Notes: generated by a model from the sequence alone, not told the origin. Positions 1 to 8,734 are shown, counted from the stretch's first letter. The stretch: 24,062 nt of DNA from Bacteroidota bacterium (GCA_041478155.1 JBGOVN010000001.1:1-24062), one strand, 5' to 3'. Translations and numbers: made by a program.

Positions 1-603
1 CCTCATCACGTTGAGCCAGTCGGCGGACGTCCCTTTCTTACTGCTGATTTTTTTCTTAACACGATCCGCAAGAATTTCTGCACCGCCGCCGGGAATTGAC
101 CGCAGTCCTGCAGCCCAGAGCCGCTCGAGAACCTCCCGGATTGAAAGACCCGAGACATTTGCCATACCGATAATTTCGGATGTGGAAAAGAAGTGCGGAT
201 ACACCTGCGGAACCTCAGCAACCGTACGCCGCACCATTTCTTCATAGTACTCGAACGGAAGAGCCGGATTGACCCCCCCCTGCAAGAGCACCGTCGTAAC
301 ACCCTTGGCAGCGGCGTCTTTGAAATTTTGAATCATGTGGTCGACCGAGTGTGTATACACCCCCTCGTCGCCCGGATGACGATAAAATGCGCAGAAAATG
401 CAATCAACGTTGCAGACGTTCGTGTAGTTCGGGTTGGTGTCCACGACGTAGGTAACCCTTGGTTCGGGGTTTTTTCGAAAACGGATCTCATTAGCGAGGT
501 CGCCCAGGTCAAGCAACTCGGTGTTTCGAAGGAGGAATACCCCTTCTTCTTGCGTCAGCCGCTCACCGGTACGTGATTTCTTTATGACTGTTTCAACCGT
601 CAT
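1..603 (-). CDS. mqnC: Cyclic dehypoxanthine futalosine synthase MqnC (radical SAM), 5' part only; runs off the left edge
   Basis: Not in the ORF track; translated by hand from the ATG at 603: MTVETVIKKSRTGERLTQEEG...VTYVVDTNPNYTNVCNVDCIFCAFYRHPGD...VLLQGGVNP...SIPGGGAEILADRVKKKIS. It has the CxxxCxxC motif, the NYTNVC..C.FCAFYR and LLQGG motifs of MqnC, and is open to position 1. Confidence 0.9.
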   Translation of the reverse strand, partial: MTVETVIKKSRTGERLTQEEGVFLLRNTELLDLGDLANEIRFRKNPEPRVTYVVDTNPNYTNVCNVDCIFCAFYRHPGDEGVYTHSVDHMIQNFKDAAAKGVTTVLLQGGVNPALPFEYYEEMVRRTVAEVPQVYPHFFSTSEIIGMANVSGLSIREVLERLWAAGLRSIPGGGAEILADRVKKKISSKKGTSADWLNVMR

Positions 604-614
604 CTGTCATGGGC

Positions 615-1457
615 TCAAAAACTAATTTTATATCCCAACGCCTTTAACTCCTTCATGATCCCGAGCGACCCTTCTTCAAGCTTGACGACAATGGGTTTAA
701 CGGTTACGCCCGGAACTGTCTTTGGGAAATTCACATCGGACATGTGGAGGATGCAGACGCGCCCCTTGCCGAGCTTGCCGACGAAATGACCGACTTCGAA
801 CATCGCGTATGTAAGGTCGTCCGCGTTAAGAACAAAAAAAGCAAACCGAACGTCAGAACGTTCCTGGATTTCCTCAAGCGAGAGCATCTGGCCGTGCACT
901 CTATTCAGCACTACCTCTTCGAGCCCTATCTCGCTCAGGAATTGTGACAATTGAGCTCGCAAGGGATCATTCTGTTCACCGATGACATACACCTTGTTGC
1001 TCGCGATGCCATCGGACTTTGTCGGCGCGGGTGCAGGAGCAGGCGCAGCGACTGGCGCGGCTGCGGTAGCCGCTTTTGGCGGCGGCTTCAATACCCGGGC
1101 TCCGCCAGTGTCAGTTGATGTTACCGGCGCCGGAGCCGCGACGGCGGCCGGAGCGGCTGCAGCGGCGAGCTCGGGAGACGCTTTTAATTTTTCATACAAC
1201 TCCTTGATCGAAGTTACGATAAGCTGAGCCGACGATTGAAAGAAATAGCCGCCGTTCTGGTCTCCGACAATCTTGTTCTTATACGGAAACCCAATGGGCC
1301 CGGACTGCTCGAGAGTCTCGAGGCAACTTTTTCGCCATTCAAGATATTTGTTCTGAAGTCTGGCATTGTATCCGGAAAATTCGAAGCCTCCGAGAGGCAC
1401 AAGTTGGGTCCCGGTTGCTAACAGTTCTTCGAATTTTTTTACGATGGCTTCAGACAT
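615..1457 (-). CDS. Divergent TIR-like nucleotide-binding protein (PF10137/Cap12-Pycsar TIR-like type): N-terminal helical domain, Ala/Pro linker, C-terminal TIR-like domain
   Basis: The C-terminal segment KVYVIG...LSQFLSEIGLEEVVL...DVRFAFFVLNADD..MFEVGHFVGKLGKGRVCIL matches the family pattern KVFIVHG...FL..LGLEPIIL...FAIVLLTPDD...FELGYF.GKLGR.RV. ATG at 1457 is preceded by GGAG/AGGTG. Confidence 0.75.
   Translation of the reverse strand: MSEAIVKKFEELLATGTQLVPLGGFEFSGYNARLQNKYLEWRKSCLETLEQSGPIGFPYKNKIVGDQNGGYFFQSSAQLIVTSIKELYEKLKASPELAAAAAPAAVAAPAPVTSTDTGGARVLKPPPKAATAAAPVAAPAPAPAPTKSDGIASNKVYVIGEQNDPLRAQLSQFLSEIGLEEVVLNRVHGQMLSLEEIQERSDVRFAFFVLNADDLTYAMFEVGHFVGKLGKGRVCILHMSDVNFPKTVPGVTVKPIVVKLEEGSLGIMKELKALGYKISF
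1002..1181 (-). repeat. Low-complexity Ala/Pro-rich linker inside the TIR-like protein
   Basis: Residues ~93-152: ASPELAAAAAPAAVAAPAPVTSTDTGGARVLKPPPKAATAAAPVAAPAPAPAPTKS. Confidence 0.8.
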
Positions 1458-1471
1458 ACACCTGGCAACTC

Positions 1472-3337
1472 CTACACACTTTCCACTTCGACGGAGCGAA
1501 GCAGTGATTGAAACGTTTCTATAGCCAACTTTTCACGTTCCCCAACGCGGTAGTTGATTCCCTCGAGATATTCCCCGGCCTCTTGCGGTGTGAGACCGAT
1601 TCGTTTTCCGAGTAAGAGACCCACGGCCTCGAAATCCTCCTCTGCCTTCTCGACGGAGCGCTGGATGAGAAGCGAAAGTTCCTCCGTCTGCTCCTGCGAC
1701 AGAGATGTTCGCACAGCCCACAAGGCGAACACGAATGGGAGCTTTTTCCAGTCATACCACTCAGCTGCCAGGTCGTACACAATTTCAAATCCTTCCAGTC
1801 CGAATTTTCTGTGCCTCAGTGCTTCATCACCAATAAGCAACACCGCTTCAAACGATGAATAATCGTTCACCCCCGAATGCATTCTCTTCATCACTGCCTT
1901 GACACCGTATTTCTTTTCCAACAAGATCTTCAAGAGCGTCACCGAGGTTGCCGTATCATCGGTGATTCCAATCGTTTTACCCTCGAGGTCTCTCCAACCG
2001 TGATTCGAAAAGAGCAGGACACTCTTTACCTGGTCTCGCGTAGCAATGCAGAAGTTCAGAGGCCTCAGGGTTTCCCGCTGGGCCAAGTAATCGACGAGAG
2101 AAAATGGACCCGCGTCAATCTCACCGTGCCTCGAAAGAACACCCATCCGCCGCGGGCTGACGGGCATGACCTTGAATTGGCGTCGTTCAAAATTCCTGTA
2201 GAACGGGACTGAGTTCAGGTACGGGATTTTCCCGACAACGTTCGAGGCGTACAGATGAAGCGGGTTGTAATAGACGTCCCGCTCCACCGGAATCTTTCCG
2301 GCGTCGAGGATGATCTTGATGATCCGGTCCTTCTCCAGCTTCGAAGGGCTCACGGCGCCGGCATCGTGGGCGATTCGCTCACCCCCCACCGTTCCATCCA
2401 TGTCGTCCGCCCCAAAGTTCAGCGCTATGGACGCCACTTCCTCCGTGAGCATCACCCAATACGCCTTGATATGCGGAATATTATCGAGCATCAATCTCGA
2501 TATCGAAATCATTTTCAGATCGTCAATGGCGGAGGTAAAACGGTCGGGCGGCTTGATCCCGGTGTCTCCCGGCTGAAACGCGAGAGGGATGAACGACAAG
2601 AACCCGCCAGTCTCGTCCTGTGCCTCTCGAAGCCTGATCATGTGGTGAACGCGCTCGGCGAATGTCTCGACGTGGCCATAGAGGATCGTGCTATTGGTCG
2701 GAATCCCGAGCCGGTGAGCGGTCTTGTGAACCTCAAACCACGTCTTTGCTCCGATCTTCTGATTGAACAGCAATTTGCGTACCCGTTCCGAGAACACCTC
2801 AGCGCCGCCTCCAGGCATCGTGCGCAGTCCCGCTTCTTTTAGCTGGCGAAGCACATCCTCGATGGGTATTCGGAACTTTTTATGGAAAAAATCGATCTCG
2901 ACCGCCGTAAATGCTTTGATGTCGACAGAGGGAAACTTCTGTTTGATCTGCCGAATCATGTCGAGATAGTATTCCCATTCCCAATCCGGATGGAGGCCAC
3001 CGGTAATATGTACCTCATGGATATCCGGCGTGAGTTTGTGGAGGATTTCATGAATTGTCATCTCGTAGGCATCCGGGCGTCCTGCCTTAGTCGCAAAATC
3101 GCAAAACTTGCAGGAGAGAACACAGATATTCGTCGGCTCGATCTTCTGATTCAGCACAAAATAGACCGCATCGCCACTCAGGTTGCGCTGGACGAAATTA
3201 GCCATCTTGCCGATCGAAATGAGGTCGTTCGAAGTGAACATCGCGACACCATCTTCCAGCGTCAGACGTTCCCCGGCCTGAACCTTCTCCCAGATCGGTG
3301 CAAGTTTCTTATCCCGAAAAAAAATATCCGCACTCAT
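1472..3337 (-). CDS. mqnE: Fusion of aminofutalosine synthase MqnE (radical SAM, N-terminal, ~3337-2264) and chorismate dehydratase MqnA (C-terminal, ~2239-1472)
   Basis: N-terminal half: PTNICVLSCKFC, EVHITGG, KAFTAVEI, TMPGGGAE, HIKAYWVM, GADDMDGT, PVERD (MqnE-type). C-terminal half: GKIPYLNSVPFY, VKSVLLFS, TSVTLLKILL, LLIGDEAL, DLAAEW...LPFVFALW (MqnA). I prefer the ATG at 3337 (MSADIFF) over the GTG/TTG extension to 3403, which overlaps mqnL. Confidence 0.9.
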   Translation of the reverse strand: MSADIFFRDKKLAPIWEKVQAGERLTLEDGVAMFTSNDLISIGKMANFVQRNLSGDAVYFVLNQKIEPTNICVLSCKFCDFATKAGRPDAYEMTIHEILHKLTPDIHEVHITGGLHPDWEWEYYLDMIRQIKQKFPSVDIKAFTAVEIDFFHKKFRIPIEDVLRQLKEAGLRTMPGGGAEVFSERVRKLLFNQKIGAKTWFEVHKTAHRLGIPTNSTILYGHVETFAERVHHMIRLREAQDETGGFLSFIPLAFQPGDTGIKPPDRFTSAIDDLKMISISRLMLDNIPHIKAYWVMLTEEVASIALNFGADDMDGTVGGERIAHDAGAVSPSKLEKDRIIKIILDAGKIPVERDVYYNPLHLYASNVVGKIPYLNSVPFYRNFERRQFKVMPVSPRRMGVLSRHGEIDAGPFSLVDYLAQRETLRPLNFCIATRDQVKSVLLFSNHGWRDLEGKTIGITDDTATSVTLLKILLEKKYGVKAVMKRMHSGVNDYSSFEAVLLIGDEALRHRKFGLEGFEIVYDLAAEWYDWKKLPFVFALWAVRTSLSQEQTEELSLLIQRSVEKAEEDFEAVGLLLGKRIGLTPQEAGEYLEGINYRVGEREKLAIETFQSLLRSVEVESV

Positions 3338-3371: not shown

Positions 3372-5147
3372 CTACTTCCAGTATTGATCCCACTTTTCCT
3401 CAACCTTTCTCACTATTTTCTTCTCCATCGTCAGTGTTCCAGGATATCCCTTCTTCCACGTCGCATCGATTCCCATCACACCTTTGTAAATCGGAGATAT
3501 CCCCATGAGCCGTTGCTCCGTAAAAATAACATCCCGCTCACAGTCGAACCGTGTAAAAACTCCCCAGAGATAGTTTTCCCGGTCCATAATATCAACATCC
3601 TCGCTCACGATTGCTATCACACTTACGTCCTTCAGTTCCTTTCTCAGCACGAGCTTCTCAAGAACCGACCGTCCATTTGCACGAACTTTGACCAATAGGA
3701 GACAACTCTCTACCAAGTTGATGTCGACGATTCTGCGGTCGAGCGACCTGAGCCAACGAAGATCCGCCGCCGCCTTGACCGAACCACCCTTGCGTGTCCC
3801 GCGCACCTTGCGGGTCGCGTCGATGACCATCTTGCTCCCCAGTTCCATCGTGAAGCTTGTGAAATCAAGGGTGTCCAACGGTACCTTGGGTATGAGCACG
3901 AAATCATAATGCGGATCAAAATTGTCCCTGATGGATTGGAGTACCGACTTCCAGTCCCGCGCCTGGACATCTTCGGAAACGAGTACCACGCATTTCGTCA
4001 ACGAGAGTTGTCCGGTGCCAAGCAAGCCGAGTGCGGCTTTCATCGCCTCCTTCGCATACCGGTCCTCGACCGAAACGACCAGGAGATTATGGAAGCCGGC
4101 CTCGTAGTATGCCCAAAGATTTCGTACTTCCTTGTGGATCAGTTTCGCGAGTGGGCCTAAAATCTCCTGAGTAGCATCACCCAGGAATTTATCCTCCATC
4201 GGTGGAATTCCGACGACGGTCGCAGGATATATGGCGTCGCGTCGCCGAGTCACAGCGCGAACATGGAACACGGGAAACGGTGCGGCTTCCGAATAGTGGC
4301 CGAAGTGGTCGCCGAACGGACCTTCCTTTCGACGCTGACCAGCCGGAACTGCGCCTTCCAGAATGAACTCGGCTTGAGCAGGAACGAACGTTGAAATCGT
4401 TTTCCCCCTCATCATCGGAATCGGTTTTCCGCGGAGGAATGCTGCGAACTGCACCTCATCGATTCCTTCGGGTAGTGGAGCGATCGTGGCGAAAAGGAGT
4501 GCTGGGTCCGTTCCAAGTGCAACAGCCACTTCCAGTTCCCGTCCAAGACGCTCTGCACGGTAATAATGGAACCCCCCTCCTTTCTGGATCTGCCAATGCA
4601 TGCCCGTCGTCTTGGCATCGTAGACATGGAGTCTGTAGAGGCCTACATTTCGTCTTGCATCGACCGGGTCGTAGGTGAAGACCTGTCCCATCGTGATGAA
4701 CCTTCCTCCATCACGAGGCCAGCATGTTTGAAGGGGAAGTTCGTCAAGATTTGGTTTGCAAACGATTTCCTGGGAGCTCCCGTCGCGAACAATTCGCGCC
4801 CTCGCTTTCAGGAGCTTGGCGACGACCGACCGCTGGTTCCACACCGATGAGATCGTCGGGGGCATCATGCGGTCAAAGAATGTGATAAGCTCGGATCCTA
4901 TCTGTTCGGGATGCCGGCCGAGTGCCAGCTCAATGCGTCGGTCCGACGCAAAGACGTTGATCGCGAGGGGAATCTTCGACCCTCTCACATTTTCAAAGAG
5001 CAGAGCAGGCTTCTTTTCCTTCAGCGCCCGCGTGGCAATTTCTGTAATCTCGAGCCTCGGATCAACTTCGAAGCGAACGCGCTTAAGTTCCCCGATCGAT
5101 TCCAGATAGCGAACGAATTCACCAAAGGCCGGAAATGCATTTACCAT
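3372..5147 (-). CDS. ubiD: UbiD-family prFMN-dependent decarboxylase, menaquinone futalosine type (MqnL), long form
   Basis: EITEIA, PALLFENV, NVGLYR, EGPFGDHFGHY (catalytic Glu motif), PATVVG.PP.ED; located in the mqn operon; GAGG RBS. Confidence 0.92.
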   Translation of the reverse strand: MVNAFPAFGEFVRYLESIGELKRVRFEVDPRLEITEIATRALKEKKPALLFENVRGSKIPLAINVFASDRRIELALGRHPEQIGSELITFFDRMMPPTISSVWNQRSVVAKLLKARARIVRDGSSQEIVCKPNLDELPLQTCWPRDGGRFITMGQVFTYDPVDARRNVGLYRLHVYDAKTTGMHWQIQKGGGFHYYRAERLGRELEVAVALGTDPALLFATIAPLPEGIDEVQFAAFLRGKPIPMMRGKTISTFVPAQAEFILEGAVPAGQRRKEGPFGDHFGHYSEAAPFPVFHVRAVTRRRDAIYPATVVGIPPMEDKFLGDATQEILGPLAKLIHKEVRNLWAYYEAGFHNLLVVSVEDRYAKEAMKAALGLLGTGQLSLTKCVVLVSEDVQARDWKSVLQSIRDNFDPHYDFVLIPKVPLDTLDFTSFTMELGSKMVIDATRKVRGTRKGGSVKAAADLRWLRSLDRRIVDINLVESCLLLVKVRANGRSVLEKLVLRKELKDVSVIAIVSEDVDIMDRENYLWGVFTRFDCERDVIFTEQRLMGISPIYKGVMGIDATWKKGYPGTLTMEKKIVRKVEEKWDQYWK

Positions 5148-5153
5148 CGCGCC

Positions 5154-5705
5154 TCATTCAAGTTCTTGCGACCTCCACCCGTTCGGAACAGGGAAACCAA
5201 GAACACCCAGGACCTTGGTAATAAATGCATTCACATATTCGTCGACAGTTTTTGGGACAAAATACAAAGGCGGAGATATCGGCATGATCACTGCGCCGTC
5301 CCGGGAAAGCCTCGCGCACTGTTCCAACGAGATTGTCGACAACGGTGTTTCACGCACGCAGAGGATCAATTTTGAGTGTTCTTTCAGGGCTACCTGTGCG
5401 GATCGGGTAATCAGTGTGTCGCCGATGCCGGATGCAATCTTACCGAGCGTTGAGGTTGAGCACGGTAGAACGACGACGGCGTCAATGTGATTCGACCCGG
5501 AAGCGAGGGGCGCCGTCAGGTCGTCGTCCGAAAACTGACGCTTGATGTACGGAGCCAGGTCTTTGTCGGTCAGACCGAGCTCGTCCTTCAGTAAGACCTT
5601 CCCCCATTTGCTCACAACAAGAAACTTCTCAGCGCTGCACTGTTTGAGGAATTCCCGCGCGTAGATTGCGCCGGACGCACCTGTAATTCCGACGGCAATC
5701 CTCAC
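5154..5705 (-). CDS. ubiX: Flavin prenyltransferase UbiX (MqnM role)
   Basis: MRIAVGITGASG, APLASGS, PCSTSTLGKIASG, LITRSAQVALKE, RETPLS. Its GTG start overlaps the upstream TGA (GTGA). Confidence 0.95.
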   Translation of the reverse strand: MRIAVGITGASGAIYAREFLKQCSAEKFLVVSKWGKVLLKDELGLTDKDLAPYIKRQFSDDDLTAPLASGSNHIDAVVVLPCSTSTLGKIASGIGDTLITRSAQVALKEHSKLILCVRETPLSTISLEQCARLSRDGAVIMPISPPLYFVPKTVDEYVNAFITKVLGVLGFPVPNGWRSQELE

Positions 5706-6547
5706 CGAAAAAAGACCCCGGCCAGGACCATGCCGAAGACCGAGAATCCCAGCACGGCGTTGATCTTAAAAAATGCAAGCTCGACATCTTCGGACTTGCG
5801 ATGTTCGAGATACAGCAAATAACCGGAGAGCAGAAGAAACGGAACAGCGGTGATTGCCCGAATATACACGGCAAAGAGGATTCCGAGGACGACAAACGAC
5901 GCACCGTGGAGATACCCGGAGATTCTCAGCGCTTGCGTCCTCCCGAGACGCGAAGTTAACGAATAGAGATTTTCTTTTCGGTCGAACAGTTCATCCAAGG
6001 TTGAGTAAATAATGTCGAAGCCTGAAACCCACAGAATCGTAAAGCCCGTTAAGAGGATGGCAGGAAGGATGTTCTCGAACGACCGCTGGACTGCAAACCA
6101 GCCGCCAAGCGGGGCCATCGACACACCGAGTCCGACACCGAAATGCGCAAGGCTCGTGAACCGCTTCAAGTAAGGATAGAGAGTAAACACCAGAAGAGGG
6201 AGTGGTGATAGCATCAAACAAAATGGGGAGAGAAGCGCCGCGCTCAGAAAATATGCCATAAGGCCTGCGAGAAGTACCCCCGAGGCTTCCACGAGACTGA
6301 GCCTGCCACTCGGAAGCTCGCGGCCGCTCGTTCGTGGATTGCGTTTGTCGATCTCGCGATCGATCATGCGATTAAGAGCTAACGCGGCTGTCCGGACCCC
6401 TGTTGCTCCTACAAGAACCAGCAAGAGAAGCGAGACGGACGGAGGTTCTTTCGCGGCGAGGAAGACACCGCTGTAGATCAGGGGGAGTGAAAACAGCGTG
6501 TGCTCGATTTTTATGAAACTGGCAAAACTCTTAACTTTTTGCACCAC
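5702..6547 (-). CDS. ubiA: UbiA-family prenyltransferase (MqnP-type)
   Basis: IKIEHTLFSLP, NRMIDREIDKRNPRTSGRELPSG, YPYLKRFT, WVSGFDIIY...D..FD; multiple hydrophobic helices; first gene of the mqn operon. Confidence 0.92.
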   Translation of the reverse strand: MVQKVKSFASFIKIEHTLFSLPLIYSGVFLAAKEPPSVSLLLLVLVGATGVRTAALALNRMIDREIDKRNPRTSGRELPSGRLSLVEASGVLLAGLMAYFLSAALLSPFCLMLSPLPLLVFTLYPYLKRFTSLAHFGVGLGVSMAPLGGWFAVQRSFENILPAILLTGFTILWVSGFDIIYSTLDELFDRKENLYSLTSRLGRTQALRISGYLHGASFVVLGILFAVYIRAITAVPFLLLSGYLLYLEHRKSEDVELAFFKINAVLGFSVFGMVLAGVFFR

Positions 6548-6582: not shown

Positions 6583-6611
6583 AATATAGCAGAAAATTGA
6601 AAGGATAGCAA
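6583..6611 (-). promoter_or_regulatory. Sigma70-type promoter for the mqn operon
   Basis: TTGCTA-17 nt-TATATT on the minus strand, 35 nt upstream of the mqnP start. Confidence 0.6.
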
Positions 6612-6664: not shown

Positions 6665-8734
6665 CTACTTTACGATGCTGCCGGAAGAGACTTCCTCCTG
6701 CAATGTTACAATCGCAAGTTTGCCGTCTTTATCATTGGCGGCGAGCAACATTCCTTGTGACTCCTGTCCCATGAGTTTCGCCGGTTGAAGATTTGCGACA
6801 ACGACGACAAGTTTTCCGAGCAGGTCTTCGGGACTATACTGTTTCGCAATGCCCGCGATAATCTGACGCTGTTCACTTCCGATCTCCACCTGAAGTTTCA
6901 GAAGTTTTTCAGATTTCGGGACCTTTTCGGCAGCAAGAACTCGCGCAACTCGAAGGTCGATTTTCTTAAACTCATCGAGGGTTACGAAGGGGGCCTGTGG
7001 GGCCTTTATTGATTCGACAGGCAGCGTCCCTTTCTCAAGAAACTCCATGATTTCTCCAACCTGTTTATCGTCAATTTTTTTCACCAGGATCTCCGACTTA
7101 TTCAACGCGTGGCCTTCCGTGAGTCTTAGTTCTCCAGCCGCCTCCCAACCCTCCTCCAAGAGCGCAGTCTGCATGTTCAGCATCGTCCATGCCCTACGAG
7201 AGAGGGCGGGAACGACAGGCTCGAGTAAAATCGAGAGGCATCGCACGATCTGAAGACAAACGTGAATCGTCGTGGCGCACCGAGACTTGTCGGTTTTGAG
7301 CGTTTTCCACGGCTCCGAATCGTTAAAATATTTGTTTGCTGCCCGCGCGACATTCATCGCTTCGAGGACGCCATCCCGGAAACGATAATGCTCGAAAAAC
7401 TCACCAACCTTCCGGGGTGCATCCCGGAGTTTCTCAATGATCTCCCGGTCAATCTTCTCGACCGGGCCGCAGAGAGGAACCTTGCTTTCGAAATTCTTTT
7501 CTGTAAACGCGACTGTTCGGTTAATGAAGTTGCCCAGAATATCAGCCAGTTCGTTGTTCGTGCGTGCCTGGAAGTCTTTGAGATAGAAATCACTATCGCG
7601 AGTCTCGGGCAGATTGACGGCAAGGGCGTAGCGAAGGGCATCTGCCGGAAAGAATTTAAGAAAATCCACCACGTCAATTCCCCAGCCACGACTCTTCGAG
7701 AATTTTTGACCTTCAAAGTTCAAAAACTCATTTGCGGGCACGTTTTCCGGAAGGATGTACTGGTCTTTGCCGCCGTCATTCCACGCCATTAACATCGCGG
7801 GAAACACGATACAATGGAACACGACATTGTCTTTGCCGATAAAAGCCACGTATTTCGTATCCGCGCTCTGCCAATACTGTTTCCACGCATCGGGGGTGCC
7901 GCGAGCCCCTGCCCATTCCTTCCCGGAAGAGATGTATCCCAGGACGGCATCGAACCAGACGTAGATCACCTTCTGCTCGTAACCCACAACCGGCACCGGA
8001 ACTCCCCAGGCCAAGTCACGTGTCACGGCCCTATCTTCGAGACCCACTTTGAACCAGCTTTCACAATACCGAAGGACATTATCCTTCCATCCGTCGCGAT
8101 GGTTTCGTTCTTCGATATACTTCTGAAGCCGCGCCTGGTAGGTCCCCAGGGGAAAGTACCAATGTGTCGTCTCACGAACAACGGGGGCTCGCCCGCAGAG
8201 CTTACACTTCGGCTCTATGAGGTCGATCTGATTGAGCCACGTCCCGCAGTTCTCGCATTGATCACCGCGGGCTTGCAGGTACTTACAGTTTGGACACGTG
8301 CCCTCGACGTACCGGTCGGCAAGGAAGAGCGAGTCAAACTCGCAATAGAGTTGCTGTTCCCGTTTTTCTTTCAAGATCTTTCTGCTGTGAAACTCGGAGA
8401 AGAATGCCTTCGTGGTCTCGAAATGAAGCGGAAGTGACGTTCGAGAATAGTTGTCGAAGCTCATACCAAATTCGTCGAAGGCGGCCCGGTTTGCCGGATG
8501 GTATCGGTCGATGATGGATTTTGGGGTGACCTTCTCTTTCTCGGCGGAAACAGTGATTGCGACACCGTGTTCGTCAGAACCACAGAGAAAGAGGACGTCG
8601 CGCTTCTTCAGTCGTTGGTAGCGAACGTAGATATCAGCCGGCAAGTATGCCCCGGCAAGATGACCCAAATGAATGAATCCGTTCGCGTACGGTAGCGCTG
8701 CGGTGACAAGAATTCGCTTAAAGGGGGGTGTCAT
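6665..8734 (-). CDS. metG: Methionine--tRNA ligase with C-terminal tRNA-binding (Trbp111-like) domain
   Basis: TAALPYANGFIHLGH (HIGH), GSDEHG, Zn knuckles, YVWFDA, FIGKDN, KFSKS, DLRVARV...SQGMLLA. Confidence 0.98.
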   Translation of the reverse strand: MTPPFKRILVTAALPYANGFIHLGHLAGAYLPADIYVRYQRLKKRDVLFLCGSDEHGVAITVSAEKEKVTPKSIIDRYHPANRAAFDEFGMSFDNYSRTSLPLHFETTKAFFSEFHSRKILKEKREQQLYCEFDSLFLADRYVEGTCPNCKYLQARGDQCENCGTWLNQIDLIEPKCKLCGRAPVVRETTHWYFPLGTYQARLQKYIEERNHRDGWKDNVLRYCESWFKVGLEDRAVTRDLAWGVPVPVVGYEQKVIYVWFDAVLGYISSGKEWAGARGTPDAWKQYWQSADTKYVAFIGKDNVVFHCIVFPAMLMAWNDGGKDQYILPENVPANEFLNFEGQKFSKSRGWGIDVVDFLKFFPADALRYALAVNLPETRDSDFYLKDFQARTNNELADILGNFINRTVAFTEKNFESKVPLCGPVEKIDREIIEKLRDAPRKVGEFFEHYRFRDGVLEAMNVARAANKYFNDSEPWKTLKTDKSRCATTIHVCLQIVRCLSILLEPVVPALSRRAWTMLNMQTALLEEGWEAAGELRLTEGHALNKSEILVKKIDDKQVGEIMEFLEKGTLPVESIKAPQAPFVTLDEFKKIDLRVARVLAAEKVPKSEKLLKLQVEIGSEQRQIIAGIAKQYSPEDLLGKLVVVVANLQPAKLMGQESQGMLLAANDKDGKLAIVTLQEEVSSGSIVK

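Follow-up and report, generated by a model that had tools for sequence, protein, structure and literature searches.

Sequence evidence points to a remodelled PF10137/PDC-S35-type protein fixed in a menaquinone operon of Bacteroidota

We analysed a stretch of 24,062 nucleotides of DNA from a Bacteroidota bacterium (GCA_041478155.1, JBGOVN010000001.1:1-24062; the window hereafter), in which a gene that we call X lies between mqnEA and mqnC of a menaquinone operon and encodes a protein with a C-terminal TIR-like domain. Profile searches and alignments identify X as a remodelled protein of the PF10137/PDC-S35 type whose gene has become fixed in a biosynthetic operon. We consider it likely that X is a domesticated descendant of this family which does not carry out the futalosine step, probably no longer cleaves nicotinamide adenine dinucleotide (NAD) and would have a binding or regulatory role. 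A sequence-only reading of the window had spoken of a domesticated TIR protein, which is a fair description. It had also proposed that X might be a non-orthologous (amino)futalosine nucleosidase, and this we consider very unlikely, because X survives where the pathway decays, shows no anticorrelation with the known nucleosidases and occurs in an Ala-type form within an intact operon. The features on which the argument rests are as follows.

615..1457, minus strand: gene X, defined by its open reading frame (ORF) and translation; a likely domesticated PDC-S35-type protein with a C-terminal TIR-like domain
1173..1457, minus strand: N-terminal domain of X (residues 1-95), a predicted up-down four-helix bundle and the best-conserved part of the protein
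1008..1172, minus strand: linker of X (residues 96-150), Ala/Pro-rich and predicted to be disordered, with the basic-proline motif RVLKPPPK
618..1007, minus strand: C-terminal TIR-like (flavodoxin-like) domain of X (residues 151-280), from its predicted fold and PF10137 match
795..797, minus strand: codon of Glu221, which matches the catalytic Glu of Cap12/SfSTING (E84) in the hidden Markov model (HMM) alignment to 9lmq and 7un8
1458..1471, minus strand: 14-nucleotide gap between mqnEA and X, with AGGAG overlapping the mqnEA stop codon, 12 nucleotides ahead of the X start codon
604..614, minus strand: 11-nucleotide gap between X and mqnC, read from the sequence
1472..3337, minus strand: mqnE-mqnA fusion gene, with the likely start ATG at 3337; the longest frame opens at TTG 3403
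1..603, minus strand: first 201 codons of mqnC, the contig ending inside the gene; the partial protein matches TIGR03699 at 240 bits

X comprises 280 codons plus a stop codon, with its start codon at 1455-1457 and its stop codon at 615-617. The stop codon of the upstream ORF (1472-1474) stands 14 nucleotides before the X start, the mqnC start codon (601-603) follows 11 nucleotides after the X stop, and the three genes share the minus strand. A consensus scan found no promoter-like site in either gap, and the only terminator-like match near X falls within its own coding region, the total of such matches in the window not exceeding the shuffled expectation. Judging by gene spacing, X is probably co-transcribed with the menaquinone operon. 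No cyclase, STING, SAVED or other defence gene was found in the window, whose other genes are housekeeping genes. The sequence-only reading had given the same spacing and orientation, and had noted no visible promoter or terminator, no defence gene nearby and no mqnB or mtnN in the visible operon; its description of the locus was right in every detail that could be checked.

We found that the best PADLOC match of X is PDC-S35, a single-gene phage defence candidate (models PDLC05003-05007). The match (E 8.5e-22) is confined to the C-terminal half, at model positions 113-258 of 264, whereas canonical PDC-S35 proteins align with most or all of the model at E about 1e-70. Canonical PDC-S35 proteins were found by searching 1.8 billion cluster representatives, and P0143, P0147, P0178 and P0140 served as their representatives. 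The N-terminal domain of X aligned with the N-terminal domain of these four proteins with high significance (hhalign 99.7%, E 1.2e-26, 94 aligned columns). Since both the N-terminal and the C-terminal domain are homologous, X is, at the level of sequence comparison, a diverged member of the two-domain PDC-S35 family. In the library searched, we found no paper naming PDC-S35, nor any experimental validation of it. Only two contigs were found for the genomic context of the canonical relatives, both too short to read, and a genome-contig search with P0143 gave no match.

The N-terminal domain carries a conserved GG-x-E-x-SGYN loop and a Q-x2-YL-x-WR motif, and its structure is predicted with a predicted local distance difference test score (pLDDT) of 90.5 and a predicted template-modelling score (pTM) of 0.81. 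Sixteen residues of this domain are invariant in 26 diverse orthologues, and eight are still invariant when the four canonical relatives are added. A structure search with the domain returned generic helical bundles alone (CheA P1, catenin/vinculin and HEPN-like; Z at most 8, AFDB E at least 0.14), and an Atlas feature search gave a result under the reliability level. An Atlas cluster of stand-alone 88-residue proteins has the same predicted fold (TM 0.93, root-mean-square deviation 0.9 across residues 5-91), so the N-terminal domain may be an independent module; Bacillota is the commonest phylum among the few cluster members of known phylum. The linker that follows is of low confidence in the AlphaFold model (pLDDT below 50 at residues 100-136) and differs greatly in length among orthologues, from about 50 to over 200 residues; the orthologues as a whole have 251 to 478 residues. 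Its RVLKPPPK motif, conserved in the family of the window's genome (f1), may be a docking site, and P125 is invariant in 30 diverse orthologues.

The C-terminal domain matches PF10137, the CAP12/PycTIR TIR family, at residues 155-255 with 37.4 bits against a cut-off of 24.7, while canonical relatives score about 125 bits. Its best PDB match is the TIR domain of the TIR-STING protein 9lmq (Z 12.0 over 120 residues), which is fold-level evidence because CheY-like receivers follow closely at Z 10-11; its best neighbours in AFDB and Atlas are PF10137 proteins. The sequence-only reading had named E221 as the TIR glutamate, and this residue indeed aligns with the catalytic Glu of TIR-STING (9lmq, 7un8). 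The likeness to nucleoside deoxyribosyltransferase (NDT) and MilB folds that it had also invoked found no support: among the listed PDB and AFDB matches, Cap12-type TIR domains are the closest and no MilB-type or NDT entry appears, and PF15891 reaches only E 0.088 (13.6 bits, cut-off 30). X has no match to PF01048, TIGR03664 or TIGR01704, and no DNA-binding or known regulatory domain among its Pfam and TIGR profile matches.

We then compared the C-terminal domain with its canonical counterparts. The PDC-S35 invariant motifs F-x2-H-G, T-I-I-E-K, R-x-R-Q-N-V, L-G-R and P-S-D were sought in X, and X does not carry this set. Against 15 canonical relatives, the X clade shows a gap of 18 alignment columns (15-18 residues, depending on the canonical protein), which takes out the invariant R-x-R-Q-N loop just ahead of the catalytic Glu, and X has the identical residue in 18 of the 35 columns that are invariant or nearly so in the canonical proteins. 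The polar residues of the NAD pocket of SfSTING are R78, N80 and E84, together with D110 of the partner subunit (PMC9402430). Aligned by the HMM, X shares just the Glu (E221) with this set: Tyr217 takes the place of the Asn, Thr247 that of the Asp, and the Arg has been deleted. These changes suggest that NAD+ cleavage has probably been lost.

The remaining Glu is conserved in family f1, and it is replaced in one sublineage. We identified 11 protein clusters with Ala at this position (motif E-L-M-A-L-G-Y), in which the K-L-G motif is also lost and the N-terminal domain is still highly conserved; four of these Ala-type clusters are documented between mqnEA and mqnC. In genus g58 of a second family, f7, two genomes (G067 and G101, both 100% complete) carry the Ala-type X in an operon with intact mqnEA and mqnC. 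Both have mqnD nearby, cut by the locus edge in G067, and G101 also has ubiE; neither has an extra PNP_UDP_1 gene. By this substitution, the Glu appears to be dispensable in g58. The Ala-type proteins do have a Glu-Glu pair 3-4 residues upstream, in the same predicted helix.

To define the distribution of X, an HMM of X was run on 151 genomes of the order. X was present in single copy in all 31 genomes of f1 and in 30 of the 32 genomes of f7. In the seven other families (87 genomes) the HMM found no X, apart from two weak matches to the C-terminal domain only. Two f1 genomes that lacked X in a first search have contig breaks inside mqnC, where X would be. X is thus near-universal in two families, and does not show the patchy, island-associated pattern expected of a defence candidate. 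In nearly all of the genomes that have it, X stands between mqnEA and mqnC. Among 23 related X-carrying genomes, 20 have mqnEA directly upstream of X, and mqnC comes next wherever the stretch reaches that far. The same order was seen in four further f7 genomes and on each of the seven metagenome contigs that were of sufficient length to show it; among the latter are proteins with only 30-42% identity to X and loci with other outer flanks, isocitrate dehydrogenase replacing metG. More widely, the operon order UbiA-UbiX-UbiD-MqnEA-(X)-MqnC is conserved in the relatives, and so is, throughout the order, the fusion of MqnE and MqnA, by which a single protein of 620-650 residues covers two successive steps of the pathway. 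X has diverged faster than its neighbours between families; in G030 it shows 37% identity, against 72-74% for MqnEA and MqnC.

Moreover, X is retained where the pathway decays. Five genomes in three genera (G011, G017, G024, G078 and G123) have lost or broken mqnEA and mqnC and keep X intact. G011, G017 and G024, which represent the three genera and are 93-99% complete, have no CofH-family MqnE/MqnC and no MqnA/MqnD-type gene, and X is kept directly after metG. Genus g18 offers a decay series, which we followed by comparing the loci of G123 (L090), G078 (L091) and G017 (L070) with that of G096 (L092). G096, G083 and G069 still have an intact operon. In G078 and in the closed genome G123, a MenA-like UbiA-family prenyltransferase gene stands in place of the stretch from ubiA to mqnEA, and mqnC is frameshifted or split at the same codon (about 267); G123 keeps an 88-codon mqnEA remnant, and only a short mqnC remnant is left in G017. 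X is intact throughout the series, with every residue that is invariant in the family, and it is under purifying selection: the ratio of non-synonymous to synonymous substitution rates (dN/dS) between G078 and G123 is 0.105 at a dS of 0.92. MenD and MenB gave no match over the cut-off in the mqn-less genomes, which seem to be without any head-group synthesis; the absence of both suggests that g18 has switched to scavenging the naphthoquinone head group. The best X tree implies three changes for the losses of mqn, and this tree is poorly resolved and compatible with one origin. The retention of X without mqn weakens a link specifically to menaquinone synthesis.

The junctions of the operon give a hint of how X may have arrived. 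In sister families without X, we found the following genes at these junctions.

L063:5044-5693 and 7611-8352 (G029): a PIN toxin with a small adjacent ORF weakly matching DUF6290, between mqnEA and mqnC, and a HEPN-nucleotidyltransferase (HEPN-MNT) pair between ubiD and mqnEA
L067:4004-4570 (G035): an AbiEii-like nucleotidyltransferase gene
L059:8174-8461 (G040): a Phd/RelB-like fragment

Because these X-less families carry toxin-antitoxin or defence-type inserts there, the mqn operon junctions appear to take up genes of conflict systems repeatedly. The simplest history would be that, in an ancestor shared by f1 and f7, a PDC-S35-type gene was inserted between mqnEA and mqnC, its domestication coming afterwards; X may have been gained once, although the X tree is poorly resolved.

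We further examined whether X could supply the nucleosidase that the futalosine pathway needs between MqnE and MqnC. Neither MqnB (futalosine hydrolase) nor MTAN (5′-methylthioadenosine/S-adenosylhomocysteine nucleosidase) was found in the window, in its genome, a metagenome-assembled genome of 77% completeness, or in 40 related genomes of high quality. The models of MqnB (TIGR03664) and MTAN (TIGR01704) gave no match over the cut-off in any of these 41 genomes of the order, with or without X, while the MTAN model gives clear matches elsewhere in the class (in another order) and in the phylum. Genes of the mqnA/mqnD type (PF02621) are present in 39 of the 40-41 genomes searched, and the pathway is present in 15 of the 16 genomes outside f1 that were searched for PF02621. 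In the sister families the operon has the same arrangement, UbiA-UbiX-UbiD-MqnEA-MqnC, without X, with mqnEA directly next to mqnC at 11 loci, and the 15 X-less genomes that were also searched for MqnB and MTAN all lack both. Since the sister families run the pathway without X, MqnB or MTAN, another enzyme must carry out the cleavage step, and the enzyme that cleaves aminofutalosine in the order would be common to lineages with and without X. Of the two genomic expectations attached to the nucleosidase proposal, the recurrence of the mqnEA-X-mqnC order was borne out by the genomes and contigs described above; an anticorrelation of X with mqnB or mtnN was not found, both being absent with or without X in the 41 genomes.

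Other candidates for this step were considered as well. PNP_UDP_1 genes occur in all 46 genomes searched, in one to four and typically two copies, with no pattern by presence of X, absence of X or Ala type. In the window's genome, the high-scoring PNP_UDP_1 gene encodes a purine nucleoside phosphorylase (PNP), and the order has no PNP_UDP_1 members other than PNP-type phosphorylases. The other PNP_UDP_1 gene was examined in four genomes and belongs there to a cdd-tdk-nupC cluster for nucleoside salvage; as it is present regardless of X, it was rejected as the specific missing nucleosidase. In G017, which lacks mqn, the PNP-like gene of the salvage cluster (L096:3279-3845) is interrupted by an in-frame TAG, which leaves 188 residues, and the gene has no clear link to the pathway, since mqn-less G024 keeps a complete copy intact. 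The small ORFs beside mqnC or mqnD in relatives (241 residues, 213 residues, ABC_membrane_3 and Amidohydro_2) were also set aside, having no nucleosidase signature. Around mqnD and ubiE of relatives, Amidohydro_2 and ABC_membrane_3 genes recur, with a Cu-oxidase_4 (YfiH/LACC1-type) gene further off; L080:7954-8877 belongs to this set. A third, weaker PF02621 (MqnA/MqnD-like) paralogue of about 280 residues (L004:1220-2056, contig C30) is found in nearly all genomes of the order, and it probably has another function because it is kept even in genomes without mqnA, mqnE, mqnC and mqnD. A full-text literature search found no paper naming both futalosine and TIR domains.

Taken together, both domains of X are homologous to those of PDC-S35 proteins, its C-terminal domain is remodelled, the gene is fixed in the operon, and it is retained without the pathway. 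From these observations we propose the following course, which we regard as likely. An ancestral stand-alone family would have joined the four-helix N-terminal domain to a PF10137 TIR-like domain. The ancestor of X would have inserted at the mqnEA/mqnC junction in the ancestor of two Ignavibacteriales-type families, and would then have been fixed as a vertically inherited, single-copy gene expressed with the operon. Recognition, the ancestral function, would still fall to the N-terminal domain, and output, through the binding of a ligand or a protein, would come from the remodelled TIR-like domain at the end of a flexible linker. The role of X would be regulatory or adaptor-like, without dependence on aminofutalosine chemistry or on the early steps of the operon, and binding or regulation is its most likely mode of action. 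X may also be a regulator tied to nucleotide or NAD status, the fallback that the sequence-only reading had offered. In immune proteins, the effector is usually conserved and the sensor variable. X reverses this pattern, its presumed sensor, the N-terminal domain, being most conserved and its TIR-like effector remodelled. Several points weigh against this proposal. The binding or regulatory mode is one that we only infer, and the predicted fold of the N-terminal domain offers no functional clue. The Glu is conserved in most lineages, and the upstream Glu-Glu of the Ala-type proteins may leave room for shifted or altered catalysis. The position in the mqn operon, conserved down to 30% identity, would also fit a real functional tie to menaquinone metabolism, and in the g18 genomes that lack mqnEA, X adjoins the MenA-like prenyltransferase gene.

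These last points belong to an alternative in which X regulates or assists menaquinone metabolism generally, serving late steps, quinone homeostasis or head-group salvage and not the futalosine steps. X always lies inside or beside quinone genes: the MenA-like gene stands directly beside it in G123, G078 and G017, in place of the lost mqn block, a MenG/UbiE gene lies about 1 kb from it in G011, and the operon position suggests co-expression. Because X stays beside the MenA-like gene in g18, such a role has to be kept in view, yet we think it unlikely. What surrounds X in mqn-less genomes may be left over from the former locus, the short G024 contig shows no identified quinone gene next to X, seven sister families do without X, and the protein has no DNA-binding or known regulatory domain. 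It is slightly less probable still that X goes on defending against phage as a single gene, as a PDC-S35-type NADase or as an abortive-infection effector of another kind, and is merely housed in a housekeeping operon. That both domains have homologues in a catalogued defence candidate, that the Glu is kept in most lineages, that X diverges fast between families and that conflict genes are drawn to the operon junctions would all fit such a role. However, X is single-copy, vertically inherited and near-universal in two families rather than patchy, has no defence island around it and reverses the usual immune pattern of conservation; the Arg, Asn and Asp of the pocket are lost, as is the Glu in g58, and PDC-S35 itself is a defence candidate only, named by no paper in the library searched. 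Both the role in quinone metabolism and the residual defence role are rated well below the domesticated, non-pathway reading.

The nucleosidase alternatives fare worse. That X is the (amino)futalosine nucleosidase at the MqnB/MTAN step has in its favour the exact position between mqnEA and mqnC with gaps of 14 and 11 nucleotides, the very deep conservation of this synteny, the lack of MqnB and MTAN matches in the order, though MTAN can be found in the class and phylum outside it, and the retained Glu of a known N-glycosidase fold, whose remodelled pocket could mean a new substrate. We hold it to be very improbable, since the seven X-less sister families manage without X and, where searched, without MqnB and MTAN, joining mqnEA directly to mqnC; the PNP_UDP_1 content follows neither the presence nor the type of X; X stays intact, at a dN/dS of about 0.1, in the five genomes in which mqnEA and mqnC are deleted or broken; Ala replaces the Glu of g58 within an intact operon; and the listed structural matches include no MilB/NDT-type entry. 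Similarly little credit can be given to a variant in which the Glu-bearing X is a remodelled TIR-fold N-glycosidase and MTAN analogue acting on an adenosyl product of the flanking radical S-adenosylmethionine (SAM) enzymes, aminofutalosine and/or 5′-deoxyadenosine, the Glu of the Ala-types being shifted by one helical turn to the upstream Glu-Glu. Least credible of all is a general nucleosidase for adenosyl by-products (5′-deoxyadenosine, methylthioadenosine or S-adenosylhomocysteine), an MTAN analogue that would stay useful after the loss of mqn. The order is without MTAN, X lies between two radical-SAM genes, and retention after mqn loss would be expected; but sister families lack both X and MTAN, PNP-type phosphorylases present in all genomes searched could clear these compounds, the Ala-type sublineage argues against Glu-dependent catalysis, and positive evidence is lacking.

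The domesticated, non-pathway reading thus stands as the preferred one, and the rest of the window is in keeping with a housekeeping locus. The window begins at base 1 of contig C304. The source names of its closest protein relatives place its genome in the Ignavibacteria / Bacteroidota group, and the sequence runs containing it are sediment-metagenome DNA runs only. The MqnE-MqnA fusion protein has 621-643 residues, depending on the start chosen; the homologues align from about residue 20 on, which favours the shorter frame, and the protein matches TIGR03700 with 471.9 bits (over the cut-off) and PF02621 at E 1.9e-47. Upstream of it, the following features were annotated.

3372..6547, minus strand: upstream part of the operon, with genes for late menaquinone steps (Pfam matches)
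3372-5147, minus strand: UbiD-like gene (Pfam match)
5154-5705, minus strand: UbiX-like gene (Pfam match)
5702-6547, minus strand: UbiA-family prenyltransferase gene (Pfam match)
6583..6611, minus strand: promoter-like site in the metG-ubiA gap (TTGCTA, 17 nucleotides, TATATT, with TG), from a consensus scan only

The last of these is a possible operon promoter, the total of such sites being not above the shuffled expectation. Upstream of ubiA come metG and then holB, and the window encodes, besides UbiD, UbiX, UbiA, MetRS and HolB, an Omp85 protein, an M23 peptidase, HprK, a Xer-type recombinase, TopA, YbeY and an S41 protease, among others.

If the preferred reading is right, X is a clear example from nature of core physiology recruiting an immune-type TIR-like protein, one that has long been fixed in an essential cofactor operon and in which the NAD pocket has been dismantled and the former 'sensor' domain has become the conserved core. 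It would offer a route to the role of non-catalytic bacterial TIR-like domains. A separate gap concerns the pathway itself: among the genomes sampled from the order (41 searched with both models, and more with MTAN alone), none encodes an enzyme that can be recognised as carrying out N-ribosidic cleavage, and, as X is very unlikely to be the answer, the cleavage enzyme of the futalosine pathway in this order is still to be found.

Comparison with known systems places X as follows. With MqnB and MTAN, members of the PNP_UDP_1 superfamily, X shares genomic logic only, being placed between the genes for the maker of aminofutalosine and the user of the deribosylated product. It differs from them in its unrelated fold, in its persistence without the pathway, in its absence from sister families that have the pathway, and in a Glu that appears dispensable in one genus. 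With Cap12 (TIR-STING; SfSTING 7un8 and 9lmq) and PycTIR, the NADase effectors of CBASS and Pycsar, X shares the Pfam family PF10137, the fold and the aligned catalytic Glu. Unlike them, it contains no STING, SAVED or cyclic nucleoside monophosphate (cNMP) sensor and has no cyclase in its neighbourhood; it also lacks counterparts of SfSTING R78, N80 and D110, and sequence identity is only 14-18%. Canonical PDC-S35 proteins resemble X in two-domain architecture, in length and in the Glu-x-Gly-x-Phe and C-terminal E-L-K-x-x-G motifs. However, they match most or all of the PDC-S35 model and X matches by its C-terminal half alone; X is without the R-x-R-Q-N loop, its H-G, T-I-I-E-K and P-S-D motifs are replaced, it has a long Ala/Pro linker, and it is fixed in a biosynthetic operon and inherited vertically.

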